Below, one piece after another: positions 3,001 through 63,151 of a DNA stretch of 64,000 bases. The translations under genes and the position numbers were made by a program. The stretch is from Candidatus Liptonbacteria bacterium (GTDB taxonomy: Bacteria > Patescibacteriota > Minisyncoccia > UBA6257 > 2-01-FULL-56-20), in the NCBI GenBank assembly GCA_016194445.1, contig JACQBP010000010.1:75-64074 (forward strand). The letters run 5' to 3'. A model generated the notes under the pieces. It did not search any database. It was not told where the DNA came from and saw nothing but the letters and a program-made list of their open reading frames with translations. How positions within the stretch are numbered: the first letter of the stretch is position 1; each line of letters opens with the position of its first letter.

Positions 3001-5098
3001 TGCCAAACTTTCGATTGGCGGCACGCCACCTCAATCCAATACCAGCACGTTAGTTTTACTGGGTAACAATTTCCTCTCATCTTCAACTGCCTCTAATGGG
3101 AGCGGAACATTTTTAGGCGCTAACCCAGCGACGGGATTCAACGGAGATTTCTTAAATTTTCAAGTGAATTCCTCCACTAAGTTTCAGGTTAGCTCGTCAG
3201 GGGTTATAACCGCTACGACAGTTTCATCAACAGGTATCACTTTCACGAACGCGACGGGGAGCGGCAACTTCCAAGTGGGCACCGGCATCTTCACGACCCT
3301 CGCGTCCTCAACGGGCATCACCTTTTCAAACGCCACGGGGTCGGGGAATCTGCAGGTTACGACGCTTATTGCGACGGGGACCCTCGCTATCGCGACGACG
3401 TCTGCACCCATTGGTTCAACGAGCACCTTGTGGGTTTGCGCGAAATCGAACTGTACGGTGCCGGCGGCAACAACAAGCACTGACACGGTGGCTTTCTTTG
3501 CCTCTTCTCGGGGGACAACGACGAGTACATCTATTACGGCGCGGGGGACGATTACGGGCGGAATGGCGGACGTGGGAGAGTTTGTAAAAGTAGTGGGGGA
3601 TGAGAGTACCTATCAAGCGGGCGACGTGCTTTCGATTGCGGTGGCGGATTCGATTAGTTTTGAAAAGTCGAAGGAAGCTTATAACCCGTGGCTGGCCGGG
3701 GTGGTTACCGAGACCGCAGGGCTTATCGCCGGGGGAGGCGAGGATGGACGCTCGAGGACGGTAATGGCACTGGCCGGTCGGGTGCCAGTTAAAGTGACTG
3801 GTGAGAACGGACCGATTAAACAGGGCGACGCGCTTACCTCGGCCAGCCGCGAAGGTTATGCCATGAAAGCGACGAGGTTGGGACGAACGGTAGCGGTGGC
3901 GCTAGAATCATTCAGTGGTACCACGGCAAGCGATGACGGAAAGATTATGGCGCTCATCAATCTTTCTTGGTTTGGCGGCAATATTAAGGAGGGTTTGAGC
4001 ATCAATGAGAGCGCTGGAGATATCGGCCGCCAAGCGCTCGATATTTTTCAGACCTATAAGATTGGAGGCCAGGCCAGCACGTCTTCTGAATTACTAACTG
4101 GCCGGGTGGCGGCTGAGCTAGAAGTGATCACGCCCAAAATTCTCACGAATGAACTCACCGTGAGCAGTACCGCTTCAATCAATGGGAATTTGGCGGTGGG
4201 AGGGGAAGCGGTTTTCACCGGTAAGGTAACGGCGCAACAGATCGAAGCGCAAGAGATAAAGAGTCCGGGACTCGATTACATCTCGAATACCTTGGCAACT
4301 TTAGGAAACTCGATGGATGATATTAAAAATAGAGTCACGGCGCTGGAAAACGGTTTTGGGGTGAGTTCTTCGACACAAGCGAGTAGTAGCTTAGGAATAG
4401 ATCTACAAGCTCTATTAGATAAAACTGGCGCGCTCACTATAAGTGGAGAGCTGACCTTAAAGAATGGTTTGAAGGTGGACAAGATCGAATCTTTAGGCGA
4501 GACGATCGCCTTTATGAGCGATACGGTTTTCTTCGGGCGACCTTATTTAAATAGCGACAGCGGCGGTTTCGCGGTCGTTTCGCAAGGGGAGCGGAAGGTA
4601 GAAGTGGTTTTTGATAAGGAGTATGTGGCGCAGCCGGTCGTAAATGCCACGATTTCGCTTGAAGATAACGCCAACGCGACGAGTACCGAAGAAGCGATTT
4701 TTGGAAATGGATTAAATTACTTAGTGACTCGAAAGAACCCGAAGGGCTTTACGATTGTGCTTAACAAACCCGCTCCGACGGATATAACTTTCAGTTGGGT
4801 GGCGCTTGCGGTTAAAGACGCAAAGACTTTTACATTTAAGTCGACTCCGGAACCTCCTCCGGCTTCGGCGCCGCTGCCGCCGGATGGAACAGTGGTTCCG
4901 CAAGCCACTTCGACAACAGAGGTTTCTTCTTCAACTTCTTCTACGACGCCAGAAGTTTCATCTTCAACCGATACGGGATTATTGCCACCTGATCTTGCGA
5001 CATCCACTCCGAGTTTAACGGGTGATGTTTTGGGCAGCCCGGCGACTAGTTCACCGCCTGATTTACCGCCGCCGGAAGCCACTTCGGCGCCGCCGTAA
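23..5098 (+). CDS. giant repetitive cell-surface/adhesin-like protein. It is 5'-partial: the frame is open to the window edge and the first listed codon is GTG
   Basis: Continuous 1691-codon ORF. It has tandem ~15-aa SSTGITFTNATGSGN-type repeats and Gly-rich GNGG-type blocks (beta-helix-like). A ~1.2 kb module is duplicated: near-identical ~110-nt DNA segments lie at ~1121-1232 and ~2351-2462, plus the repeated peptide ILTVASTSNIFVILDTGLIGVGTSSPTALFHI. The C-terminus has a non-repetitive domain with a coiled-coil-like stalk and a Ser/Thr/Pro-rich tail. No stop occurs upstream in frame. Confidence 0.75.
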   Translation: MGTFATTTVFSSNPLAKASSSLLQFGPNVIQGGNSASGTYLGVNPVAFAGDFLNFQTNSSTQFVVSATGTATLAGNLTIAGFTSSSQEYVNSSTITGLRFTSATGTNLTITNLLDVQGNRYITSTVVADPLTLSQLYVNSSATIVGLNFTSATGTNLNVTTLVGTTVSSTGLTFSNATGSGNLQVGRHGLGSDDGDECFFHRDYFYERHWVELFRPDRYPSGRDELATLPAGAEFNSALERDHHLSRRQHRDRLWRQLPRLPSQLFFPVPDDHRLLDRDHFHERHRERELPSGHRHLHDPRVLNGHHLYERHGLGSDDGHQCFLDRDHFHERDGVGESLGLGPHFFLPTLCQQFHTRRPQLHECDAILTVASTSNIFVILDTGLIGVGTSSPTALFHIVGATPAAATTASNTLVVVGGTGGAGTSGATGGVGGLISLTTGNGGDQNNSALLTSGKGGAFSITTGNGGLNQGTLLAAGAGGAITILTGNGGNSSSTGINGGGAAGAITIQGGVGGTATTTENGGNGGSLTLLGGAGGSTASTTNLEVGGNGGSITLNPGAGGNGAASGTTGNIILASLRGLVGIGTSSPSDKLTIGGRPGENTTSSLLFLGPSGPIRGGSVSGTVIGSNFVTFNGDFINFQVNSSTQFRVSATGTVFLNGGLFASTTVSSTGITFTNATGSGNLTVLGITSSSQEFVNSSTITGLRFTNATGTTLVMTTVSSTGITFTNATGSGVMTVTNVSSTGITFTNATGSGALTMLGGSNTRLGTTTNAATNAILTVASTSNIFVILDTGLIGVGTSSPTALFHIIGATPADGKNASDTLVVVGGTGGGPTIGGKGGLISLTTGNGGAVGTTGDTSGAGGAFTIRTGNGGLNEGFGSTGAGGNISIISGNGGQASTSNAGNAGAAGTITISGGTGGVATSTLSGGAGGSISISAGPGGATTLSGSDVGGAGGNITLNPGAGGNGAASGTTGNIILANLRGLVGVGTSSPFAKLSIGGTPPQSNTSTLVLLGNNFLSSSTASNGSGTFLGANPATGFNGDFLNFQVNSSTKFQVSSSGVITATTVSSTGITFTNATGSGNFQVGTGIFTTLASSTGITFSNATGSGNLQVTTLIATGTLAIATTSAPIGSTSTLWVCAKSNCTVPAATTSTDTVAFFASSRGTTTSTSITARGTITGGMADVGEFVKVVGDESTYQAGDVLSIAVADSISFEKSKEAYNPWLAGVVTETAGLIAGGGEDGRSRTVMALAGRVPVKVTGENGPIKQGDALTSASREGYAMKATRLGRTVAVALESFSGTTASDDGKIMALINLSWFGGNIKEGLSINESAGDIGRQALDIFQTYKIGGQASTSSELLTGRVAAELEVITPKILTNELTVSSTASINGNLAVGGEAVFTGKVTAQQIEAQEIKSPGLDYISNTLATLGNSMDDIKNRVTALENGFGVSSSTQASSSLGIDLQALLDKTGALTISGELTLKNGLKVDKIESLGETIAFMSDTVFFGRPYLNSDSGGFAVVSQGERKVEVVFDKEYVAQPVVNATISLEDNANATSTEEAIFGNGLNYLVTRKNPKGFTIVLNKPAPTDITFSWVALAVKDAKTFTFKSTPEPPPASAPLPPDGTVVPQATSTTEVSSSTSSTTPEVSSSTDTGLLPPDLATSTPSLTGDVLGSPATSSPPDLPPPEATSAPP

Positions 5099-5202: not shown

Positions 5203-5445
5203 ATGGAGAAAGAAGATCGAATTGATAAATTGGCGAGGATGAGTGCCGATGAATTCGCGGCAATCCGCCGTGATATGAAAACCTTGGCGACTAAGGATGA
5301 GCTTAGGGGCATGAAGGTGGAGATTCTTGACGCAATCAATGATCTAAGTCTTCACGTGAATGCCTGGGTGTCGGATACCGAGCATCGCTTCAAGGACGTC
5401 GAGCAACGGCTTCATGTACTTGAGAACAAGACTGGTCTTCGATAG
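5203..5445 (+). CDS. small coiled-coil hypothetical protein (80 aa)
   Basis: ORF directly downstream of a consensus promoter. The translated sequence has a charged, heptad-like composition. Confidence 0.45.
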   Translation: MEKEDRIDKLARMSADEFAAIRRDMKTLATKDELRGMKVEILDAINDLSLHVNAWVSDTEHRFKDVEQRLHVLENKTGLR

Positions 5446-5470
5446 TAAAAAAGGCGTAATTAAAAAACCT

Positions 5471-6052
5471 ATGGCTAAAAACATAAAGTCCACGGATGTT
5501 TTAAATGGGGAAGGGGAGGGAGAGGGGACGGATACTGGTTTTTTGCATTCTTCAGAAAATCAAAGTATAATGGAAGAAGAGGAGCTCGAAATTCCTACTA
5601 AGACCATGAAACCAATTTCCAAAGTTTTTCTAGCGGTACTTTTGGGAGCGCTTGTTTTTAGCTCCGGTTCAGCTTTGTATTTCTATAACAAGTATACAAA
5701 TCTTCAAAACGGTACGATTCAACCACCATCGCAAGCTTCGGTGGCGGATGAAACGAAGGCGCTTTTGGCCAGCGTGGGGAGTTTGATTGTTTTGCCCAAG
5801 AATGAGTCGCCGACGATTGCGACGGTGGCTGATCCGAGTCAACTTCGAGACCAACCTTTTTTCGTTAATGCTAAAAAAGGAGATAAGGTGCTGATTTACT
5901 CGACCGCTCGAAAAGCGATTCTCTATAGTCCCACGCAAAATAAGATCGTGGAGGTGGCGCCAGTAAACTTTGAAAATTCAAGTCAAGCGGCGACACCTGC
6001 TCCAAAAAGTAATGTTACATCGACGAACGGAAGATCGGTGAATAAAAAGTAG
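5471..6052 (+). CDS. N-terminally membrane-anchored hypothetical protein
   Basis: MAKNIK start inside the longer track ORF 5360-6052. There is a single hydrophobic helix (ISKVFLAVLLGALVFSSG) followed by a soluble domain. The exact start is uncertain. Confidence 0.45.
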   Translation: MAKNIKSTDVLNGEGEGEGTDTGFLHSSENQSIMEEEELEIPTKTMKPISKVFLAVLLGALVFSSGSALYFYNKYTNLQNGTIQPPSQASVADETKALLASVGSLIVLPKNESPTIATVADPSQLRDQPFFVNAKKGDKVLIYSTARKAILYSPTQNKIVEVAPVNFENSSQAATPAPKSNVTSTNGRSVNKK

Positions 6053-6282
6053 TGGAGATGCGGTAGAAGTTAAAAAATAAAAGATAAAAATGAAAAGTGA
6101 CAGTGAAAACTTAAAAAACTAAAGAGAAGAAAAATCGAGATACAAAAAAATAAAAGTGAAAAATGGCGGTGAAAAGTTAAAAATGGGATTTAGAAAAGGA
6201 CCGAATAGAAACACGATAGAGATACAATAGAGAAACTTTGGATATATTTTGGGGAAAAACGGTCGAAAAATAGATAATAAAA

Positions 6283-7334: not shown

Positions 7335-7373
7335 ATGAGGATATAGAATTTAGAATTTAGGATTTAGGTTACT

Positions 7374-8288
7374 ATGGAAAAAGAATCACCGAAATCTTTT
7401 AACCGGTATGGCTCTAAATTTCCAGGCCCTGCCTTTTTGTTTTTACTCCTGTATTCTATATCCTATATCCTAAATCCTTCTACTGGTTATGCATCATCTC
7501 ATCCGGTTTTTTATTTTGAAGGACCAGAGGGGATGCTCGGGGCGGGAAGCGAGTTTTCAGTGAAAGTTTTGGTGGATTCAAAGGAAGCTCTCAATGCTTA
7601 TGCCTTCTCGATTGATTACCCAGCTGAGAAGCTTGAGGTGGTCAGTGTCAATGACGCCGGTACGATTCTAGACATTAGAAAAGATCAGCCGGAGGCCCCT
7701 TTTTCGAGTCCGCTTAAATTTTCCGGCGCCGGTTTTAAATCTTTTTCTGGGAAGGCGGGGTTGCTTTTTAGGATTAACTTTAGAGTGATTGAAGTCGGAT
7801 CTAGTCTACTAACATTTAGCGAATCAAAAGCTTACTTAGCTGACGGCAAGGGAACACTCATTGTTCCTGAGGTTCGAATTTTAAAGGTAGAAGCAAAAGA
7901 AGGTATTCTCGGGAGCACTCCCGAAGTGGTAAACGACAAAACGCCACCTTCATTTGAAAAACTGGCTTTAGTGCCGGACCCGATAAATTCTGGTCAAAAG
8001 TTGCTGACTTTTTTAGTTAAAGATGATGTTTCTGGAGTTAGAGATGTGTCACTGCAATCTAAACGCTGGTTATGGTGGGAGGAGATTAAGAAGATCAGCA
8101 ATCCGGCGGCAGTTTCGAATTCGACGTGGGCGGTGAGGGTTCGAGTGAGCGATAACACCGGCAACATTAGCGAGAAGATAATTTACGATTGGGGAGTTCT
8201 GGCGCGGAATCTTTGGCCTCTCATTTTGATAATGTTCTTTGCCATCATCCTAGTTATAAACAGAATATTTAGAAGAAAGCGGTTATAA
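7374..8288 (+). CDS. cohesin-like domain protein with a C-terminal membrane anchor
   Basis: The N-terminal segment GSEFSVKVLVDSKEALNAYAFSIDYPAEKLEVVSV...GLLFRINFRVIEVGSSLLTF...ADGKGT matches the cohesin beta-sandwich pattern. The C-terminus carries a TM helix (LWPLILIMFFAIILVI) followed by basic residues. Confidence 0.55.
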   Translation: MEKESPKSFNRYGSKFPGPAFLFLLLYSISYILNPSTGYASSHPVFYFEGPEGMLGAGSEFSVKVLVDSKEALNAYAFSIDYPAEKLEVVSVNDAGTILDIRKDQPEAPFSSPLKFSGAGFKSFSGKAGLLFRINFRVIEVGSSLLTFSESKAYLADGKGTLIVPEVRILKVEAKEGILGSTPEVVNDKTPPSFEKLALVPDPINSGQKLLTFLVKDDVSGVRDVSLQSKRWLWWEEIKKISNPAAVSNSTWAVRVRVSDNTGNISEKIIYDWGVLARNLWPLILIMFFAIILVINRIFRRKRL

Positions 8289-10875: not shown

Positions 10876-10941
10876 GTGATTTTGGTAAATAATTCCTTAG
10901 CGCCCAAAAGGATGGGGGTTAGATTTTATAATATCTATTCT

Positions 10942-12462
10942 ATGAAGTTTCAGCTTGTTAAAAATATTTCGAAAACAACCGCGCCAGTTTTTATTTTAAA
11001 AGACGAAGATCGGATTGATCGACACGGTTTTTTTAAATTTTTGTCGGATGGAGACAGGAAGTATTTAGTGAACTTTCAGAAAAATTTTCCGATCAAAAAA
11101 GAGCATAGCCATCCTTTGGTTTTGCCATCGGGGGTTAAAGTGATGGTGATTGGAGTATGGGAGAGAGCGAAATTTAATCATCGGAAAGCCATGATGACGG
11201 CTCGGAGAGTGATCGCGGTTGCGAGACGGGAGCGAGTGCGGAATTTGGCGGTAAGTTTTGAAGATTTTTTGGCAAAAGATAACCGCGATAATCGAAAGAC
11301 ACTGGCTGAAGTTTTGGCGACGCAGATGGAAATGGCGAATTACGAGTTTGTGAAGTACAAGACGCCGCAACCAGAAGGGTGGGCTTTTGTGCAGGAAGTC
11401 GGGGTGGTTTCCGAAAAACCGATGCCAATTTTAAATGAAGCCTTGAAGCAAGGACAAATTGTGGGTGAGGAGATTAACAACGCGAGGACACTTTCGAATA
11501 CGCCGGGGAACGATATGACGCCTCAAACTTTAGCCAACGGAGCGCTTAAAATTGGCGAGCAGTATAAAGTCAAGGTTGAGATTCTGGACGAAAAGGCCAT
11601 GAAGGAGCTCAAGATGGGTGGGGTGTTGGGTGTAGCGAAGGGTTCAATGGAGAAGCCAAAGTTTATTGTGATGGAATATATGAAAGGTAAGCGCTCGGAG
11701 AAGCCGGTAGTTTTAGTGGGCAAAGGGGTAACGTTTGATACGGGGGGTTTGAATTTGAAACCGGAGAATGGAATTTATGAGATGCATATGGATATGTCGG
11801 GTGGGGCGGCGGTGATCCATACGATCGCGGCACTCGCTCGACTAAAAGTGAAGAAAAATATCGTGGCTTTGGTGCCGGCGGTCGAGAATATGCCGTCGGG
11901 ATCGAGTTATCACCCCGGGGATGTTTTGACGACGATGAACGGAAAGACGATTGAAGTTTTGAATACGGATGCCGAAGGACGGGTGATTTTGGCGGACGCT
12001 TTGGAATATTCCAAGAAATATAAACCTCGATTAGTGATTGACGTGGCGACTTTAACGGGTTCCGCCATATCAGCCTTGGGACAAAGGGCTTCGGCGATTT
12101 TTTCTAACAACGCTCGAGTGGAACAGAAGATGATCGAGAGCGGTGAGGCGGTGGGTGATTTTCTTTGGGCGTTGCCCTTATGGGAGGAGTATGAGGAGGA
12201 TGTGAAGGGCACGTTTGGAGATGTGGCGAATAGCTCTAAAACCAGATACGGCGGCGTGATTAATGGAGCGATGTTTCTCTGGCAGTTTATAAAGAGTTCA
12301 CAAGAGACAAGAGACAAGGGACATGGAGGGGAAAAGGATCAGATTCCGTGGGTGCATATTGATATGGCGCCGCGAATGACGGCGACGGAAAATGAATTTT
12401 TGGCGAAGGGCTCGACCGGCGCGCCGGTGGGACTTTTGACGGAATTTTTGAAGAAGTTTTAG
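10942..12462 (+). CDS. pepA: M17 leucyl aminopeptidase
   Basis: M17 signature motifs VGKGVTFDTGG and NTDAEGRVILADAL are present. The start was chosen at MKFQLVK inside the track ORF 10876-12462. Confidence 0.85.
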   Translation: MKFQLVKNISKTTAPVFILKDEDRIDRHGFFKFLSDGDRKYLVNFQKNFPIKKEHSHPLVLPSGVKVMVIGVWERAKFNHRKAMMTARRVIAVARRERVRNLAVSFEDFLAKDNRDNRKTLAEVLATQMEMANYEFVKYKTPQPEGWAFVQEVGVVSEKPMPILNEALKQGQIVGEEINNARTLSNTPGNDMTPQTLANGALKIGEQYKVKVEILDEKAMKELKMGGVLGVAKGSMEKPKFIVMEYMKGKRSEKPVVLVGKGVTFDTGGLNLKPENGIYEMHMDMSGGAAVIHTIAALARLKVKKNIVALVPAVENMPSGSSYHPGDVLTTMNGKTIEVLNTDAEGRVILADALEYSKKYKPRLVIDVATLTGSAISALGQRASAIFSNNARVEQKMIESGEAVGDFLWALPLWEEYEEDVKGTFGDVANSSKTRYGGVINGAMFLWQFIKSSQETRDKGHGGEKDQIPWVHIDMAPRMTATENEFLAKGSTGAPVGLLTEFLKKF

Positions 12463-13374: not shown

Positions 13375-13516
13375 GATAGAAGTTTAAAATTTAAAGATCA
13401 AAATGTAAAATTTTGGTATCCGTCCGGATTTCCAAGATAGGTTGTGCTTTTATGGTATCTTATCTGACACATTTTGAAAAGTTGAAAAGTTAGATTACAA
13501 TTAAGGGAGATTTATG

Positions 13517-25578: not shown

Positions 25579-25642
25579 GTAGAAAATAGAAAGTAGCAAG
25601 TAGAAAATAGAAAAAAATAGCAAGGGCGAGCATGAAACCCCC

Positions 25643-28015: not shown

Positions 28016-28081
28016 GATTTGTGATGGTGACTGTGGATAATGTCTGTTGATTTGATTGTGCGACTGTGAGAAAATTGAGAG

Positions 28082-28588
28082 ATGGACAAATTGCCGGGTG
28101 ATTATGTGGCGGGTTTTGTGGATGGTGAGGGTTGTTTTGCTTTAAAATTTAGGCGCGATGTTAAACATGAACGTAAGGGTAAACCCATCTATTTCTATTG
28201 GGATATTGAATTCGCTATTGTTTTGCGTGAAGATGATGGAGGGATAATTCAAAACATAAGGGATACTCTGGGTTGTGGGAAAATAAGTATTAGCCGGAAA
28301 GGCCAAGTCAGGTATTCAGTAAACAGGATTGATGATTTACTTGATAAGGTAGTGCCATTCTTTGAGAGGTATAGATTAAGGGCAAAAAAGAGATTCGATT
28401 TTGAGTTATGGACAGAAGCTCTTGAGATATTGTCGAGAAATCAACAGACTAAGACGAAACGTAAAGGTATAGGTTTTGCAAAAGTAGAATGGGGAAGGGA
28501 TGATTTAAAAAGGTTGAGAGAAATCCAGGAAGAAATGCGAGAATTTAAGAGTAAAAGGAGTGATTGGAAATGGATAGCTCAAGTTTAA
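28082..28588 (+). CDS. free-standing single-motif LAGLIDADG homing endonuclease (I-CreI-like, 168 aa)
   Basis: YVAGFVDGEGCF LAGLIDADG motif near the N-terminus. The size and architecture match I-CreI. Confidence 0.75.
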   Translation: MDKLPGDYVAGFVDGEGCFALKFRRDVKHERKGKPIYFYWDIEFAIVLREDDGGIIQNIRDTLGCGKISISRKGQVRYSVNRIDDLLDKVVPFFERYRLRAKKRFDFELWTEALEILSRNQQTKTKRKGIGFAKVEWGRDDLKRLREIQEEMREFKSKRSDWKWIAQV

Positions 28589-28634: not shown

Positions 28635-30023
28635 ATGACTCGGAAAAGCCCTTCCCTACCTCGATTAAACGCTCACTTTGTAGGTATCGGCGGGATTGGA
28701 ATTAGCGCTTTGGCTAGGTGGTTTTTGGCTCAAAATTGGGCTGTTTCGGGTTCTGACCTGGCGGACAGTCAGATCGTGGCTGATTTAAGAAAAGCCGGCG
28801 TAAAGGTCAAAATTGGGCAAAAACAGGCTAATTTACCTAAGAAGGGCTTGGATATGGTCATTTACAGCTCGGCCGTGCCTTATTCCAATCCAGAACTGGT
28901 TGAGGCGCGACGGCGAGGTGTCAAGCCGCTTTCCTACCCGGAAGTGGTGGGGTGTCTCACCAAAGTTTATCGGACGATCGCGATTGCTGGCAGTCACGGC
29001 AAAAGTACCACAACGGCGCTCACTAGTTTGGTTTTGATGAAGGCCAAGTTGGATCCAAATGTCATACTTGGAACCAACCTGAAAGAATTTGGCAATTCTA
29101 ATTTTCGGAAAGGACGGTCCAAATGGTTGGTTTTGGAAGCCGACGAATGGAGCGCTTCTTTTTTGAATTATTACCCGGAGATTACGGTCGTGACGAATAT
29201 CGACAAAGAACATTTAGATTTTTACAAAAACTTGGCGAACGTTAAAAAAATTTTTTTGAAATTTTTAGGGAATACGAAAGTCGGCGGTTATTTGGTTTTG
29301 AATCGAGATGATAAGGCGCTTTTTTCGCTCAAGTCCCCTATCTTGAAGCTAGCGGTTAAAAATAAATTGGAGGTTTATTGGTATTCGTTGAATGATCGAG
29401 GATCGAGGATCGAGGATCGAGGTTTGAGAAAAGTTTTGAAGATCCCCGGAGAGCATAATGTGTCGAACGCGATGGCGGCCTTGTCGGTGGCGAGAATTTT
29501 GAAGATTAAGTTGTCAGTGGCGTTAAGAGCGCTAGGTTCTTATACGGGAGCGTGGAGGAGGTTTGAATACAAGGGTAGGTTTCAGGTTTCAGGTGTCAGG
29601 TGTCAGGTGTTTGATGATTACGCTCATCATCCAACTGAAATTAAAGCGACGCTCCAGGCGTTTCGAGAAAAATTTCCAAAATCAAAGTTAGTTTGTGTTT
29701 ATCAACCGCATCAAGCGAAGAGACTAAGAGCTTTGTTTAAAGAGTTCGTGGGAGCTTTTGAGCTCGCGGACATTTTAATTTTACTGCCTGTTTATGAGGT
29801 AGCGGGGCGGGATAAAACGAGTTCTGGTTTTACTTCTCAAAAGTTAGTGGATGTCATAAAGAAAAAATATCCCAAAAAAGAAGTTTACTATCTCCCCTCC
29901 CCTAAGCGAATTAGAAATATGTTACATGATACATGTGAAAAGTTTCATTACGACCACTGTGTGGTCGTAATGATGGGCGCGGGAGATATTGTGAACTACA
30001 CACCGTTGCTACTGCATAAATGA
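28635..30023 (+). CDS. murC: UDP-N-acetylmuramate--L-alanine ligase
   Basis: VHFVGIGGIGISALA, GSHGKSTTT, GEHNVSNAMAA and DDYAHHPTE MurC motifs. The gene contains two heptanucleotide tandem repeats: GATCGAG x4 at 29395-29422 and AGGTKTY x5 at 29577-29611. Confidence 0.85.
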   Translation: MTRKSPSLPRLNAHFVGIGGIGISALARWFLAQNWAVSGSDLADSQIVADLRKAGVKVKIGQKQANLPKKGLDMVIYSSAVPYSNPELVEARRRGVKPLSYPEVVGCLTKVYRTIAIAGSHGKSTTTALTSLVLMKAKLDPNVILGTNLKEFGNSNFRKGRSKWLVLEADEWSASFLNYYPEITVVTNIDKEHLDFYKNLANVKKIFLKFLGNTKVGGYLVLNRDDKALFSLKSPILKLAVKNKLEVYWYSLNDRGSRIEDRGLRKVLKIPGEHNVSNAMAALSVARILKIKLSVALRALGSYTGAWRRFEYKGRFQVSGVRCQVFDDYAHHPTEIKATLQAFREKFPKSKLVCVYQPHQAKRLRALFKEFVGAFELADILILLPVYEVAGRDKTSSGFTSQKLVDVIKKKYPKKEVYYLPSPKRIRNMLHDTCEKFHYDHCVVVMMGAGDIVNYTPLLLHK

Positions 30024-33820: not shown

Positions 33821-34346
33821 AAAAGAAGATAAATTTCTTAGGGAAAAAACTAAGGAATTTAAATTTTTCAAGAAATCCGCTCAAGCAGCTGGGAGGGAAT
33901 TGTCGTTTAAGGAAATCGACGAACTTCTTCGCGAGATGAGAAGGACGATGCGGGAAGCTAGGGGGGTGGGTTTGAGCGCGAATCAAATCGGACTCCCCTA
34001 TCGCTTATTTGTGGCGGAAGTGCCAGACGCGCAAGGGAGTGTGAAGTTTTACGCGGTCTTTAACCCACGACTTGAATTTCCTAAAAAGGAAAAAGCTGTG
34101 ATGGAAGAAGGGTGTTTAAGTGTGCCGGGGAAATACGGTTTTGTAGAGCGGGTAACCAGCGTGAAACTCAACGGAGTGGATAAACGAGGCCGAGCAGTCA
34201 AGATTAAAGCTTGGGGACTTTTGGCGCACGTTTTTCAACATGAAGTGGATCATTTGGAGGGAAAACTTTTTATTGATAAGGCTAAAGAAATTTTCGATGT
34301 ACCGAGAAGTGAAAGGTTAATTAAAAAGGAAAGCGATTTAAAATGA
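33789..34346 (+). CDS. def: peptide deformylase
   Basis: EGCLSVPG and QHEVDHLEG motifs. Confidence 0.9.
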   Translation: MAGKILTVQVKKEDKFLREKTKEFKFFKKSAQAAGRELSFKEIDELLREMRRTMREARGVGLSANQIGLPYRLFVAEVPDAQGSVKFYAVFNPRLEFPKKEKAVMEEGCLSVPGKYGFVERVTSVKLNGVDKRGRAVKIKAWGLLAHVFQHEVDHLEGKLFIDKAKEIFDVPRSERLIKKESDLK

Positions 34347-35188
34347 AATTTGTTTTTTTTGGTTCGCCTCGATTTGCGGAGATTGTTTTGAAAAAAATGA
34401 TCGAGGGCGGGTGTAAACCGAATTTAGTAATTTGCAATCCCGACCGGCCATTTGGGAGAAAAAAGGTGATCACTCCCCCACTTACCAAAATTTTGGCAAA
34501 GGAATACGAAATTGAAGTTTGGCAACCGGAGAAGTTGGATGTGGAAGGTTTTGAAAGAGAGGTGGACGGGGTGGATTTTGCGGTGGTGGCCGCTTACGCC
34601 AAGATTATCCCTCAAAGAATTGTGGATTTTCCGAATTTGGGGACGATTGGGGTTCACCCATCTTTACTCCCGAAGTACCGAGGGGCATCTCCGATTCAAA
34701 CAGCAATTTTGAAGGGCGAAAAGGAAACGGGTGTGACTTTGTATTTAATGGATGAAAAGCTCGACCACGGCCCTATTTTGGCCCAAAGAAAGACGATTAT
34801 AGGCGCTCACGAGAACTATTTACAGCTCGAGAAGCGATTAGCGGAGATGGGCGGAGAATTGCTGGCTGAAATTTTGCCGGATTTTTCGGCTGAGAAAATT
34901 AAGCCTAGGGTTCAGGATGAGACTCTCGTAACTTTCACGAAGAAATTTGTGACGCAAGACGCGTTTATTGAACCGAGGGATTTAGAGTTGGCAGAAGGCG
35001 GGAGTTATGAAAAGGCGTTAGAGATTCACCGCAAGGTGCGAGCTTTTGTTTTGGAACCGGGAGCGTGGACCACTTTTAATAAGAAACGGGTAAAAATTTT
35101 GGAGACGGATATTGTTGGCAAAAGTTTGAAGTTGAAGAAGATTCAGGTGGAGGGAGAGAAAGTGAAGGAAGTAGGAAGTAGGAAGTAG
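34343..35188 (+). CDS. fmt: methionyl-tRNA formyltransferase
   Basis: Formyltransferase N-domain (GVHPSLLPKYRGASPIQ) immediately downstream of def. The 3' end and stop lie within a GGAAGTA x4 heptamer repeat (35167-35194). Confidence 0.85.
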   Translation: MKFVFFGSPRFAEIVLKKMIEGGCKPNLVICNPDRPFGRKKVITPPLTKILAKEYEIEVWQPEKLDVEGFEREVDGVDFAVVAAYAKIIPQRIVDFPNLGTIGVHPSLLPKYRGASPIQTAILKGEKETGVTLYLMDEKLDHGPILAQRKTIIGAHENYLQLEKRLAEMGGELLAEILPDFSAEKIKPRVQDETLVTFTKKFVTQDAFIEPRDLELAEGGSYEKALEIHRKVRAFVLEPGAWTTFNKKRVKILETDIVGKSLKLKKIQVEGEKVKEVGSRK

Positions 35189-35220
35189 GAAGTGTTATCT
35201 TAAACTGCGGGTTTGCGTTT

Positions 35221-39162: not shown

Positions 39163-39212
39163 GTTACAAGTTTAAAATTAAAAAGATCAAAGTTAAAAGT
39201 CACTGTTATTCT

Positions 39213-42595: not shown

Positions 42596-44740
42596 TTATT
42601 TATTTTTGGCGGTTTGGTTGGTCAGCGTGTGCCAGACGAGTAGTAAAGGGCTGGCGACGAAGATGGATGAGTAAACACCGGTTGTGACACCGACTAAAAG
42701 AGTTAAGATAAAATATTTCAAGTTAATCGGCCCCAGGAGATAGAGAATAATCAAAACAATGATAAGGGTGAGCGAGGTGTTGATGGAGCGAGCGATGGTT
42801 TGGATGATGCTCTGATTAATAGTTTCGGCAAAGTCGGCTCGATTTTTGCTGACGATCAAATTTTCTCGAATGCGATCGAAGACAACAATGGTGTCGTGGA
42901 CCGAAAAGCCCATCACGACTAGAAGCGCGACGATAAAATTCGAATCAATTTCGATTTTTAAATAATGACCTAAAATCGCGATGAGACCAGCCGGGATGGC
43001 GATGTCGTGCAGTAAAGTAATCATGGTCACGACTCCATACTTCCAGGATGAAATGGGCCGGGAGACTTTTCGAAAAGCGTAAGCAATGTAGAGCGAGACA
43101 ATCACGATGGCGAGGATGATGGCGGTCACGGCGTTACTTTTAAGTTTTTGCCCAATCGAAGGTCCGATGGACTGAAAACTTAATTCTTCGAAGGAAGGAT
43201 AAGTTTTCTGCGCGGCTGCTTCTAAAGTGTGATGTTCGGCTTCGGTGGTGGTTTTAAAGCGAGCGAAAAATTGATTTTGGCTCGCATCCAGGTTGATGCG
43301 GATTTCGCTTATGTCACTGACAGCGGATTTAACAAAGCCTTCTAACTCTACGGTGGTGGGCTGGTTTTTTTCGATTTTAAATTGCCAGAGAGTTCCGCCC
43401 CTAAAATCGATACCTTGGTTAAAACCAAAACCAATAACGGCGAGTATCCCGGAGGCGACTAACAAACCGGAAACAGCGAGAAAAATTTTTCTTTTGGCGA
43501 TGATGTTCATGACAATTAGGTTATAGGTTGTAGGTGTTGGGTTGGCGCTGAACATACTCACCAGAACTCCGATTAAAAGGGTGAGGGCAAAGCCTCTTAC
43601 GAAACTCGAAGTGAGGAAGTAAAGGATCAAGGCCGTGATAATAGTCGAGATATTAGAGTCGCGAATGGACGGCCAGGCGCGCCGGAAGCCTTCTTCAATC
43701 GCGTTCGAACGAGAGAGTCCCCTCTTTATTTCTTCTTTGATTCTTTCGAAGATTAAAATATTGGCGTCAACAGCCATACCGATCGTAAGAATGAAACCAG
43801 CCAAACCAGCTAGAGTCATCGTCACGGAAAAGATTTTGAAAATGCCGAGGGTTAAGAAGGTGTAAATTAAAAGGGCGGATGAAGCAAAGACACCCAAGAA
43901 GCGATAGTAGGCGACCATGAAAAGCATCACTAAAAGGGTGCCGATCAAACCGGCGCTGAGCGCTCGGTTTAATGAATCAGTGCCGAGAGTCGCGCTCACG
44001 GTTTGCTGGTTGATTAGAGTGATAGGAGCCGGCAAGGCGCCCGCGTTAAAGCGTTCAACAAGACCCTGCGCTTCTTTGATGGTAAATTTTCCGGTGATCA
44101 CGGCTTGACCGCCAGAAATTTTTTGCTGAACGATGGGAGCTTCGATTAAGACGTTGTCGAGAAAGATAGCCAAGGGTTTACCGATATTAGCTTCGGTCAT
44201 CTGTTCGAAAATCGTAGCTCCTTCGCTGTTGAAGGCGATCGAAACTTGCGGCGCTTGAGTGGTTTGGTCAAAGGTGAGGGCGGCACTTTTTATATAACGG
44301 CCGGTCAGGTTAGTCGGGATGATTTCAGTTGAGGAACCGTTTTGATTGAGTTCGCGGAAGTCGAGAAGCGGAGTCAAACCAATTTGAGCGATGGCATCTT
44401 CCTTTTTTTTGATGCCGGCGAGTTCGACAATCAGATTGCTTTCTGCATTAGTTTTGGAGATGAAAACTTGGGGTTCGCTCACGCCGATTAGATTAACTCT
44501 TTTTTCGATCACATCTCGGAGGCCATTTAAAACGGAATCTTGATCCTTGGCCGGTACCTGGGCTAGATCAACTTTATAAATAAGATGGCTGCCGCCGACT
44601 AGATCCAGTCCGAGGTGCCAGGGTGACCACCGTAAACCGTAATTTTTGGGATAAATGAAAATGCCGGCTAAAACGGTTACGATTAAAATGAGAATTAAAA
44701 AGAGGCCTGGGTTGCGACGCATTGGTTGCGATTCTAACAT
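42596..44740 (-). CDS. secDF: fused protein translocase subunit SecDF
   Basis: 714 aa with SecD and SecF periplasmic and TM domains. It contains an in-frame AGGTKTY-type heptamer repeat (43518-43545) encoding PTPTTYNL. Confidence 0.85.
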   Translation of the reverse strand: MLESQPMRRNPGLFLILILIVTVLAGIFIYPKNYGLRWSPWHLGLDLVGGSHLIYKVDLAQVPAKDQDSVLNGLRDVIEKRVNLIGVSEPQVFISKTNAESNLIVELAGIKKKEDAIAQIGLTPLLDFRELNQNGSSTEIIPTNLTGRYIKSAALTFDQTTQAPQVSIAFNSEGATIFEQMTEANIGKPLAIFLDNVLIEAPIVQQKISGGQAVITGKFTIKEAQGLVERFNAGALPAPITLINQQTVSATLGTDSLNRALSAGLIGTLLVMLFMVAYYRFLGVFASSALLIYTFLTLGIFKIFSVTMTLAGLAGFILTIGMAVDANILIFERIKEEIKRGLSRSNAIEEGFRRAWPSIRDSNISTIITALILYFLTSSFVRGFALTLLIGVLVSMFSANPTPTTYNLIVMNIIAKRKIFLAVSGLLVASGILAVIGFGFNQGIDFRGGTLWQFKIEKNQPTTVELEGFVKSAVSDISEIRINLDASQNQFFARFKTTTEAEHHTLEAAAQKTYPSFEELSFQSIGPSIGQKLKSNAVTAIILAIVIVSLYIAYAFRKVSRPISSWKYGVVTMITLLHDIAIPAGLIAILGHYLKIEIDSNFIVALLVVMGFSVHDTIVVFDRIRENLIVSKNRADFAETINQSIIQTIARSINTSLTLIIVLIILYLLGPINLKYFILTLLVGVTTGVYSSIFVASPLLLVWHTLTNQTAKNK

Positions 44741-59510: not shown

Positions 59511-59557
59511 CGAACAGGTTTTAGGTTATAGGTGTTAGGTTTTAGTAAAAACGAAAA

Positions 59558-61695: not shown

Positions 61696-61738
61696 AAAAC
61701 TAGGTTTTAGGTTGTAGGTGACAGGTTTTAGATGAGAT

Positions 61739-63151
61739 ATGAAAATTTATTTATTCAATACTTTGAGCGGTAAAAAAGAATTGCTAGTGAAGCCGAAGGG
61801 AAGGCCCTTGCGGCTTTTTGTTTGCGGGCCGACGGTTTATGACGATCCGCATATTGGGAACGGGCGGACCTACGTTTTTTTTGACACGCTTGTAAAATAT
61901 TTGCGCTCGACCGGACTCAAAGTTTTTTATCTCCAAAATATTACCGATATTGACGATAAAATCATCGCTCGCGCTCACGCCGAGAAGGTTTCTTTTTCAA
62001 AAATTGCGGAGACTTATCTCGCGGTTTACTTTCGCGACATGAAAGCTTTAGGCGTAACGGCAGTGACTAAATACGCCAGAGCCACCAAATATATTCCGCA
62101 GATCCAAAAACAAATCGAGGTGCTCTTAAAAAAAGGCTATGCCTATGAAATCGCTAAAGACGGCATCTATTATGATGTTTCCAAATTTCGTGATTACGGC
62201 AAGCTTTCACGACGAACCACCGTTCAAGCCGAGTCGGGCGTGAGTCGAATTGATGAGAGCATTCATAAAAAAAATAAAGCGGACTTTGCTCTTTGGAAAT
62301 TTGGCCATACGAAAGCGCCCATGCAAATTATCAATGGAGAACCGGCATGGCCTTCGCCTTGGGGTCTAGGGCGACCGGGATGGCATATTGAAGACACGGC
62401 AATCACCGAATATTTTTTTGGCCCGCAGTATGACATTCACGGCGGAGCGGTGGATTTAAAATTCCCGCATCACGAGGCGGAAATCGCGCAGCAAGAAGCG
62501 GCTTCCGGAAAAAAACCTTTGGTGAAGATTTGGATGCACGGGGGATTTTTAACTCTGGAGGATCAAAAAATGTCGAAGAGTTTGGGCAACTTTATGACGA
62601 TTGATCAATTTTTAAAGAACACTTCACCTGAAGTATTTAGACTGATGACGCTAAGCCACCATTACCGTTCTCCCCTTAACTATACGGTTAAACTGAATAA
62701 AGAAATGAAACTCAAATGGCTAGCGATCCTGGAATTTTTAGCGAAGGCGGAGGTGGGAGCAAAATCTTCGTTAGTCAAAAAATCACGGGTCAGCAATTTG
62801 GCTAAGTTTGAAAAAGAATTTACTTTGGCTTTGGCGGATGATTTTAACACTCCGGCGGCTTTGGGAATTTTGTTCAAATTTATCGGAGAACTGCAACCGA
62901 AGTTGTGGCAGCTTTCTCGGGTTGAGGCGAAGCAGATTTTAAAGAAAATACGCAAAACCTTAAAAACACTGGGATTTTCTTTTAAATTCCCTCAAATACC
63001 CTTAAAAATTAAAGGATTGGCTCGAGAGCGCGAGAATCTAAGGAAGAATCAACAGTTTGTCCAGTCTGATAGCTTGAGAAAAAAGGCCAATGATTTAGGA
63101 TTTCTAATAGAAGATTCACCACTCGGGCCTTTCGTGTGGCCTAAATCGTGA
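61739..63151 (+). CDS. cysS: cysteinyl-tRNA synthetase
   Basis: HIGN and KMSKS class I motifs (CGPTVYDDPHIGNGRT, KMSKSLGN). Confidence 0.9.
   Translation: MKIYLFNTLSGKKELLVKPKGRPLRLFVCGPTVYDDPHIGNGRTYVFFDTLVKYLRSTGLKVFYLQNITDIDDKIIARAHAEKVSFSKIAETYLAVYFRDMKALGVTAVTKYARATKYIPQIQKQIEVLLKKGYAYEIAKDGIYYDVSKFRDYGKLSRRTTVQAESGVSRIDESIHKKNKADFALWKFGHTKAPMQIINGEPAWPSPWGLGRPGWHIEDTAITEYFFGPQYDIHGGAVDLKFPHHEAEIAQQEAASGKKPLVKIWMHGGFLTLEDQKMSKSLGNFMTIDQFLKNTSPEVFRLMTLSHHYRSPLNYTVKLNKEMKLKWLAILEFLAKAEVGAKSSLVKKSRVSNLAKFEKEFTLALADDFNTPAALGILFKFIGELQPKLWQLSRVEAKQILKKIRKTLKTLGFSFKFPQIPLKIKGLARERENLRKNQQFVQSDSLRKKANDLGFLIEDSPLGPFVWPKS

Follow-up and report, generated by a model that had tools for sequence, protein, structure and literature searches.

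Heptanucleotide tandem arrays in murC of a Candidatus Liptonbacteria bacterium and its Patescibacteria relatives

Introduction

How does an essential cell-wall gene accommodate tandem repeats whose unit length is not a multiple of three? The question is posed by murC, encoding UDP-N-acetylmuramate--L-alanine ligase, of a Candidatus Liptonbacteria bacterium (Patescibacteriota), in which two arrays of 7-nt units are embedded in the coding sequence. The gene is located on a 64,000-nt stretch of contig JACQBP010000010.1 (assembly GCA_016194445.1, positions 75 to 64,074), hereafter referred to as the window. A preliminary description made from the sequence of this window regarded perfect repeats within such a gene as unusual and as hypermutable by slippage, each gain or loss of a unit shifting the frame. 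Comparison with related loci leads us to consider it probable that the arrays are heptanucleotide microsatellites that arise by slippage, are filtered by reading frame, stop codons and protein structure, and are translated at permissive surface elements of MurC.

Heptanucleotides are the most over-represented class of long simple sequence repeat (SSR) in many bacteria, for which slippage related to the polymerase footprint has been proposed (Mrazek, Guo & Shah 2007, as presented in PMC4692102 and PMC4679880). According to the same accounts, the long SSR cases described are mainly intergenic, and units that are not a multiple of three are disfavoured in coding regions. The known heptamer families, i.e. 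the cyanobacterial STRR, the Xanthomonas/Nostoc GGGNATC and the Beggiatoaceae TAACTGA repeats, are essentially intergenic, and both inverted pairs and positions adjacent to start codons are known for them (PMC4692102, PMC4679880). Patescibacteria are not among the taxa considered in the passages of PMC4692102 and PMC4679880 that deal with heptanucleotide long SSRs, and no link between heptanucleotide repeats and Patescibacteria or the candidate phyla radiation (CPR) was found in the literature searched.

Two heptamer arrays within an intact murC gene

Both arrays lie in a single, intact open reading frame (ORF; Table 1). Its product is identical to a protein (P0001) named UDP-N-acetylmuramate--L-alanine ligase in a Candidatus Liptonbacteria metagenome-assembled genome (MAG), contains the Pfam domains PF01225, PF08245 and PF02875, and is matched over residues 11-460 by the solved MurC structure 9ir5 (E=1.4e-81). 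The MurC motifs are present (the N-terminal GxGGxG, the GKT/S P-loop and DDYAHHP), with invariant columns including G119, H121, G122, K123, S124, T125 and D327-P333. The ORF is thus assigned as MurC on the basis of its three Mur ligase domains and conserved motifs, confirming the gene name given previously. A second murC was not seen within the window.

The first array (site 1) consists of perfect GATCGAG units and is read in the murC frame as DRGSRIEDRG (residues 254-263). The second (site 2) is composed of three closely related AGGT units, and encodes RFQVSGVRCQVF (residues 315-326). The repeat coordinates, units and peptides agree with those in the preliminary description, except that site 1 begins one base earlier, at 29394. 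The unit length of 7 nt, likewise as described, applies to both arrays.

A structured RNA or a known RNA family was not detected for the murC arrays: no Rfam match was obtained for either array of the window and the predicted RNA folds are no better than those of shuffled sequences (z=+0.39 for site 1, z=+0.78 for site 2). Neither array has an inverted partner in the window, and there are no inverted repeats in the region 29300-29700.

All 51 murC orthologs are open through the arrays, and through the inverted-array inserts of ~100 nt found at this locus in relatives. In the ortholog from locus L024, with the repeat unit ATTCTAG, the sole copy of which the TAG would be in frame reads AAG instead. 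As a sequence removed before translation would not be so constrained, we conclude from these comparisons that the arrays are translated as part of MurC.

Period-7 arrays in the window and the clade

The window was scanned for arrays of at least 3 copies using one scoring scheme for all periods, with 30 dinucleotide-preserving shuffles serving as the null. Six period-7 arrays were observed, compared to a mean of 0.03 (maximum 1) in the shuffled sequences. A single array was found for each of periods 4 and 5 and none for the rest, periods 6 and 8-15 included. Period 7 is therefore the only over-represented tandem repeat class in the window. Tandem Repeats Finder (TRF) returned 47 rows for the window, 13 of which have period 7 (Table 1).

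To place these in a wider context, 80 murC loci were taken from species-representative genomes (L-numbers label loci). The 49 Patescibacteria loci among them (781 kb) contain 42 arrays of period 7, 3 of period 6 and 1 across periods 8-12. The repeat units differ by lineage and are not conserved across lineages. The repeats are hence a property of the genome and of the clade, and not of murC alone. The notion that they are unusual holds for bacteria in general, but not within this clade: there, site 2 holds an array of 4 or more units in 15 of 51 MurC orthologs, and genes as well as intergenic stretches contain dispersed period-7 arrays.

Seven of the 13 period-7 arrays are intergenic, though ~89% of the window is coding, and several abut start or stop codons. 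The units of all seven intergenic arrays contain a stop codon, which places stops in all three frames within 21 nt of array. In contrast, none of the four in-gene arrays with at least 3 copies has a stop in its sense-direction unit.

Units of the form AGGNNNN account for 7 of the 13 arrays (four are AGGTKTN), and all of these are on the + strand, whichever way the genes run (P=2e-4). The GC skew of the + strand is positive in every 8-kb block of the window (1-64000), ranging from +0.08 to +0.25, while the genes change direction near 35 kb and near 60 kb. Since the skew remains positive throughout despite these switches, a single replichore appears to cover the whole window, the + strand being the G-rich one. 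This suggests that the arrays are linked to the replication strand.

MurC as a heptamer hot spot

The location of arrays was determined for the window together with the loci of 51 relatives (867 kb). Of the 53 arrays detected, 38 lie within genes, 6 extend across a gene end and 9 are intergenic. murC holds 23 of the 53 in ~8% of the sequence; as the loci were picked via murC and the lineages are related, these 23 are not independent events. An alignment of the 51 murC genes was furthermore scanned for arrays of at least 4 units with no more than 2 mismatches. This gave 22 sequence-by-bin hits at lag 7 (2 at site 1, 15 at site 2, 4 in the C-terminal loop and 1 elsewhere), and zero such arrays at lags 5, 6, 8, 9 and 10. 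MurC is thus a heptamer hot spot with three surface sites. The units found at site 2 vary widely among lineages and include AGGTGTC, GGTATCA, ATTCAAG, AAATTRG, AAATTTC, GCAAATC, AAAGTTC, GGAATMA and ATCGCAC.

The arrays in the C-terminal loop, a variable element preceding the VMMGAGD motif, are likewise in frame and occur in L012, L018, L020, L024 and L033; the window has no array there. L081 contains TCGCAAA x3.6 in frame in murC (4681-4705 of that locus), just upstream of site 1, a position that is also without an array in the window.

Structural location of the arrays

An AlphaFold2 model of the window MurC (mean predicted local distance difference test score, pLDDT, 88.4) places site 1 in the N-terminal part of a surface helix formed by residues 255-268, with a pLDDT of 74-80. 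The segment flanked by the conserved WYS and LK[IV]PG is 9 aa long in L001, the nearest relative of the window, and in L086, both of which lack an array. With four units each, the window, L081, L082 and L002 have a segment of 16 aa. The step relative to the array-less relatives is exactly +21 nt, i.e. three units or 7 aa. In L085, site 1 has five units and the segment is 17 aa long. A 7-residue insertion corresponds to about two helical turns, and would presumably lengthen the helix with little rotation of the residues downstream.

Site 2 forms the distal two-thirds of a conserved beta-hairpin that is flanked by WRRFEYKG and DDYAHHP where the C-terminal domain begins. In the model, the hairpin strands comprise residues 311-318 and 321-328 with a turn at S319-G320, and the array encodes R315-F326. 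The corresponding element of 9ir5 is shorter (TVDGVTII, aligned as YKGT--VDGVT--IIDDY), and loop lengths in the clade span 8 aa (RFGKNPVY) to 35 aa. Both arrays are located at variable surface positions, as had been proposed; site 1 is a 7-aa insertion relative to the nearest relatives.

Many site 2 peptides have a period of 7 aa with alternating polar and hydrophobic residues (KLKISNFKLKI, KLEIRNWKLEI, KFKIQNSKFKI), a pattern that would fit an amphipathic hairpin with a two-residue turn. The V-S-G-V sequence at this position is coded by GTG TCA GGT GTC, which corresponds to 1.7 copies of the AGGTGTC unit. Such a seed could explain the recurrence of AGGTGTC arrays at site 2 in lineages down to 53% identity. 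No obvious conserved seed is present at site 1 in the array-less relatives.

Turnover of arrays between relatives

The arrays differ strongly between otherwise similar genes. L002, L081, L082 and L086 are ~90% identical outside the sites. At site 1, they have GTRTCAR x4 (L002), GTTCGAG x4 (L081), GTATCAR x4 (L082) and no array (L086), while their site 2 inserts are unrelated, with lengths of 31, 27, 31 and 12 aa, respectively. L207 and L208 (92% DNA identity) have five-unit site 2 arrays of the same length, composed of AAATTCA x4 and WAATTCC x5, respectively. These arrays differ at 10 of 35 positions (P=2.7e-4 against a background of 7.9%), mostly at unit positions 7 and 1. Periodic differences of this kind are the pattern that concerted homogenisation would produce. 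Taken together, the alignments argue that the arrays change faster than the rest of murC, with only in-frame states seen.

The preliminary description reasoned that chance would be indicated if relatives encoded the same amino acids by non-repetitive DNA at constant copy number. Instead, L086 and L017 use the same repetitive DNA at site 2 (with 53% aa identity between the proteins, 10 of 11 codons are shared in the array compared to 34% of identical-aa codons elsewhere), and the number of units at site 1 varies between 0, 4 and 5. The only other assembly of the strain (L209, from Logan run SRR12113409) is 100% identical to the window over 16.6 kb and hence provides no population information.

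Origin of the arrays

The explanation we favour, slippage followed by filtering, would operate as follows. Replication slippage with a strong, lineage-wide preference for 7 nt would generate the arrays and keep remodelling them, acting genome-wide in this Candidatus Liptonbacteria organism and in Paceibacteria-type relatives. Within genes, an array would survive only if its unit is stop-free in all three frames, if the overall gain or loss in length leaves the reading frame intact (three units = 21 nt = 7 aa) and if the encoded peptide is located on a structurally permissive surface element. MurC would offer three such places, two of which are used in the window: a helix longer by one heptad at site 1, and the tip of a beta-hairpin at site 2. 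Gain, loss, unit replacement and concerted homogenisation would then drive the evolution of these sites faster than that of the remaining gene. As only in-frame states are seen, the arrays would supply variation in loop length and sequence, and not an on/off switch. The peptides they encode are presumably selectively neutral.

Several observations weigh against this explanation. The lengths of the site 2 loop are irregular (8, 9, 12, 13, 14, 16, 19, 20, 23 aa etc.) without clean 7-aa steps, and other indels must therefore also contribute. Four clusters of 90% identity, with 9, 4, 2 and 2 sequence variants, show no indels at the sites; where lengths differ, this traces to start-codon calls, to one variant of the C-terminal loop and to one palindromic insert. 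The explanation does not account for a length of 7 nt in particular. The excess of arrays in murC is ~8-fold over neighbouring genes, and the site 2 array persists across lineages as low as 46-55% identical; neither is fully accounted for if the arrays are merely tolerated. Both may be a consequence of inheritance that is not independent, of a hairpin that is unusually permissive, or of some function. Finally, AGGTRTC recurs at different sites and in distant lineages, which hints at a sequence preference or at transfer.

A more far-reaching proposal, which we regard as rather unlikely, is that the heptamer arrays and their inverted-array hairpins do not arise passively by slippage alone, but are produced by a specific, strand-asymmetric, self-renewing process with preferred unit families such as AGGNNNN and AGGTRTC. 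Such a process would write in-frame 7-residue modules time and again into the same hairpins and helices on the surface of core enzymes, and MurC would be a target that is preferred or has functional relevance. If true, this would constitute a lineage-specific engine of protein loop growth and hypervariability in Paceibacteria-type Patescibacteria.

It is unlikely, in our judgement, that the arrays are remnants or seeds of a mobile element. Such an element would be an in-frame palindrome of heptamer arrays, similar to Rickettsia palindromic elements (RPEs), that targets or survives at MurC surface loops and spreads within and between genomes. Structures of this type do exist in relatives. In the longest site 2 inserts (L002, L019, L023, L031 and L047), a forward array is followed by a loop and then by the complementary array; these inserts keep the reading frame and have folding energies of -24 to -33 kcal/mol. 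The murC gene of L207 contains, at a fourth position, a GC-rich palindromic insert of 78 nt (2686-2763 of the locus). This insert is in frame, encodes 26 aa (FTPLEISRSKRLPPSRQRRESGSLTG) and is missing from the 92%-identical L208. It has 13-nt terminal inverted repeats (CCCCGTTAGAGAT) and TTTACC at both ends, and together with 30 nt of flanking sequence per side it forms a 138-nt stretch with a folding energy of about -66 kcal/mol. We read this insert as a recent insertion resembling an RPE or a miniature inverted-repeat transposable element (MITE).

The distribution of AGGTRTC could likewise be taken to indicate mobility. The unit occurs at site 1 or site 2 depending on the lineage, elsewhere in L032, and widely in metagenomes, and the window has four AGGTKTN arrays at separate places as well as one inverted array pair. 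A scan of metagenomes for (AGGTRTC)3 gave contigs L087-L166, and arrays of 3-15 copies are common among the matches listed. The contigs among these matches have a GC content of 0.35-0.73 (mostly >0.5), and 63 of 86 arrays are outside long ORFs. Inverted pairs are present in some contigs (L091, L092, L108 and L132). Given this wide occurrence, the unit is not specific to Patescibacteria. What these arrays and the four AGGTKTN arrays of the window have in common is the unit only, and no flanking element sequence.

However, neither murC array of the window is accompanied by an inverted partner, by terminal repeats or by additional flanking sequence, and site 1 amounts to exactly three extra units and nothing else. 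Units are lineage-specific and change in concert in place, no association with a transposase was seen, and the neighbouring LAGLIDADG gene, apparently mobile itself (see below), moved without co-converting murC. Furthermore, template switching at quasi-palindromes can also yield inverted arrays.

A small hairpin similar to the L207 insert, CGCCAAAGGCG, is present in the site 2 insert of L003 and also in L024.

Selection for a function of the arrays appears distinctly unlikely. Candidate functions are a longer hairpin or helix for a Patescibacteria-specific interaction, a single-strand binding protein that recognises heptamers, or translational pausing at a domain boundary. The murC enrichment and site 2 persistence described above would be accommodated, as would the location of site 2 at the boundary of the C-terminal domain and the conservation of codons within the array above the synonymous background. 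Codon identity can, however, stem from homogenisation towards the V-S-G-V seed. Similarly, the site 2 peptides converge on an alternating pattern despite different units (KFKIQNSKFKI, KLEIRNWKLEI, RFQVSGVRCQV), but a selective filter acting on random arrays would give the same convergent peptides. Binding of CspB to heptamer repeats is mentioned in PMC4679880. The unit sequences of the arrays are not conserved across lineages, and in the window they have neither an Rfam match nor a stable RNA structure. Moreover, many relatives are array-less with a minimal 8-aa hairpin, and the nearest relative of the window has no array at site 1.

That murC is a contingency locus, in which gain or loss of a single unit would frameshift the gene and switch peptidoglycan synthesis on or off in a subpopulation, is very improbable. 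Unit length, the perfect repeat at site 1 and the rapid divergence of arrays between relatives are all compatible with such a locus, and the preliminary description had implied frameshifting hypermutability. This implication finds no support in the comparisons. None of the 51 orthologs is frameshifted, no indels at the sites occur among the variants of the four 90%-identity clusters, and the length difference at site 1 is exactly three units, i.e. a multiple of 21 nt. The arrays have just 4-5 copies, while characterised phase-variable SSRs usually have many more units. Furthermore, murC encodes a housekeeping enzyme with no second copy seen in the window, and similar arrays are common in intergenic DNA and in other housekeeping genes.

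Chance or an assembly artefact, for which nothing speaks beyond the short length of the arrays, has practically no probability left and is refuted by the shuffles (6 period-7 arrays compared to 0.03 expected per window, which excludes a chance origin) and by the relatives' loci, since dozens of independent MAGs, which come from different studies and were built with different assemblers, show the same phenomenon and the ORF is intact through both arrays.

Relation to described repeat systems

The arrays most closely resemble prokaryotic heptanucleotide long SSRs. They consist of head-to-tail 7-nt units (within the 5-11 nt class), are longer than composition predicts, and belong to an over-represented period 7; their length and sequence vary between related genomes, as illustrated here by 0, 4 or 5 units at site 1 between species. 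In contrast to the long SSRs described by Mrazek, 38 of 53 arrays in the sampled loci are in genes, and an essential enzyme bears them in frame, time and again, at orthologous sites on its surface throughout a whole clade.

The STRR-type families share with the window a dispersed occurrence of short arrays, a preferred unit family (here AGGNNNN, 7 of 13), some inverted pairs and many positions beside start or stop codons. They differ in using one or a few fixed units that are nearly all outside genes (TAACTGA has stops), whereas here units are diverse and lineage-specific, and stop-free variants are translated. This comparison is based on a 64-kb sample of a non-cyanobacterial lineage, in which 7 of 13 arrays are intergenic and the units are diverse.

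Among contingency loci, heptanucleotide repeats are found in the hmw promoters of H. influenzae (PMC8262952), while the tetranucleotide repeats in Haemophilus and Neisseria ORFs share with murC an SSR unit that is not a multiple of three inside an ORF, such that single-unit changes would shift the frame. The murC arrays differ by their low copy number, the housekeeping nature of the gene, the absence of out-of-frame alleles among relatives, and changes only in multiples of three units. Of four features that characterise contingency loci, three are lacking in murC: off-frame alleles among the 51 orthologs and the cluster variants, a long tract, and a dispensable surface, host-interaction or restriction-modification gene.

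RPEs are ~150 bp elements with conserved sequence families and dispersed copies, inserted in frame in conserved metabolic genes (PMC10969869). They and intragenic MITEs resemble the present case in that an in-frame insertion at fold-compatible positions of a conserved gene adds a translated peptide. The inverted-array inserts at site 2 of relatives and the L207 insert are similar to RPEs in outcome. In contrast, the window arrays are 29-35 nt long without inverted termini, have local units and change in place. Three things set the murC arrays apart from described heptamer repeats: they reside in frame in an essential enzyme, they recur in a deep clade at surface sites that are orthologous, and they change in concert at constant length.

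If slippage and filtering indeed account for the arrays, they would provide a concrete mutational route to lineage-specific insertions in conserved proteins of ultra-small bacteria, in which a 7-nt slippage bias and a frame filter would lead to 7-residue modules that correspond to one helical heptad or to a two-stranded amphipathic hairpin. MurC of this clade would then represent a time series of microsatellite birth, homogenisation, inversion and decay in an essential gene, and the question of why period 7 dominates bacterial long SSRs could be put to the test in a group whose genomes are small and strongly strand-asymmetric. The arrays are likely sites of assembly and annotation errors and could serve as hypervariable markers for strain typing of Patescibacteria. 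A new regulatory system or a switch of cell-wall synthesis is not indicated.

Other arrays in the window and neighbouring genes

All period-7 arrays identified by TRF in the window are listed in Table 1, together with the genes concerned.

Table 1. Position and context of period-7 arrays and associated genes in the window.
Feature	Position	Strand	Unit and copies	Detection	Context
murC	28635-30023	+			462 aa; host of sites 1 and 2
murC site 1 array	29394-29422	+	GATCGAG x4.1	TRF, period 7, 100% matches, score 58	in murC
murC site 2 array	29577-29611	+	AGGTTTC x2, AGGTGTC x2, AGGTGTT x1 (4.9 copies)	TRF, period 7, 96% matches, score 54	in murC
Intergenic array	7338-7371	+	AGGATAT/AGAATTT/AGGATTT	TRF	ends 3 nt before ATG 7374; left arm of inverted pair (I1)
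In-gene array	7447-7478	+	TCCTATA family		N-terminus of putative cohesin-domain ORF 7374-8288; right arm of inverted pair (I2)
Intergenic array	25580-25614	+	TAGAAAA x5	TRF and scan	begins 1 nt past stop of ORF 24238-25578
Gene-end array	35166-35193	+	AGGAAGT x4, perfect	TRF	last residues and TAG stop of fmt (34343-35188)
In-gene array	43517-43535	AGGT-type unit on +	TAGGTTA/TAGGTTG x2.7	TRF	inside minus-strand ORF 42596-44740
Intergenic array	59516-59545	+	AGGTTTT/AGGTTAT/AGGTGTT x4.3	TRF	unit family that of murC site 2
Intergenic array	61701-61731	+	TAGGTTT/TAGGTTG/TAGGTGA x4.4	TRF	ends 7 nt before start of ORF 61739-63151
In-gene array	12300-12323	+	ACAAGAG x3.4, stop-free	TRF	C-terminal part of leucyl aminopeptidase (M17) gene 10876-12462
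Intergenic array, weaker	6067-6089	+	AAGATAA x3.3	TRF	14 nt past stop of ORF 5360-6052
Intergenic array, weaker	13383-13413	+	TTTAAAA x4.4	TRF, 66% matches	
Intergenic array, weaker	39163-39200	+	GTTAAAA x5.3	TRF, 65% matches	fills most of gap between two minus-strand genes
LAGLIDADG homing-endonuclease gene	28082-28588	+		Pfam PF00961, E=5.7e-20	free-standing; directly upstream of murC

The inverted pair I1/I2 has arms that are 84-85% complementary and 84-87 nt apart. Enclosed by the pair are the start codon (7374) and about 24 initial codons of an ORF with a sub-threshold match to the Pfam Cohesin family (E=7.8e-5, 23.3 bits compared to a cut-off of 24.1 bits). The fold of the pair only marginally beats shuffles (z=-1.64). 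The pair could form a long stem that sequesters the ribosome-binding site and start codon of this putative cohesin-domain gene.

The methionyl-tRNA formyltransferase gene fmt (Pfam Formyl_trans_N/C) terminates within an array. A related array with AGTAGNN units is located at the end of the same gene in L001 (17216-17239 of that locus), suggesting gene-end arrays can persist at orthologous positions while their units drift.

The LAGLIDADG gene occupies the same position in L003 (86% aa identity, compared to only ~69% for MurC), L002, L082/L083, L018 and L207. Its distribution is sporadic: L026 has a partial copy, and the sister lineages L001, L004, L081 and L208 lack the gene. Nucleotide identity to L003 is high (0.8-0.98) only within about 28030-28570. 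The gene hence looks as if it has been recently mobile, homing to the spacer upstream of murC. A link between the homing endonuclease and the arrays was rejected, as the identity stops at the edges of the LAGLIDADG gene, which indicates no co-conversion into murC.

Outside the Patescibacteria, the 21-kb locus of Desulfobacterales bacterium HSG2 (L054) contains 28 period-7 arrays of up to 16.6 copies. Its units are diverse (AACCGTC, ACCACTG, AACGGAC, AAGCATC and others) and form intergenic clusters, one of which is located just downstream of murC. The array density of this locus is far above that of the Patescibacteria, and is reminiscent of repeat-rich cyanobacteria and Beggiatoaceae.

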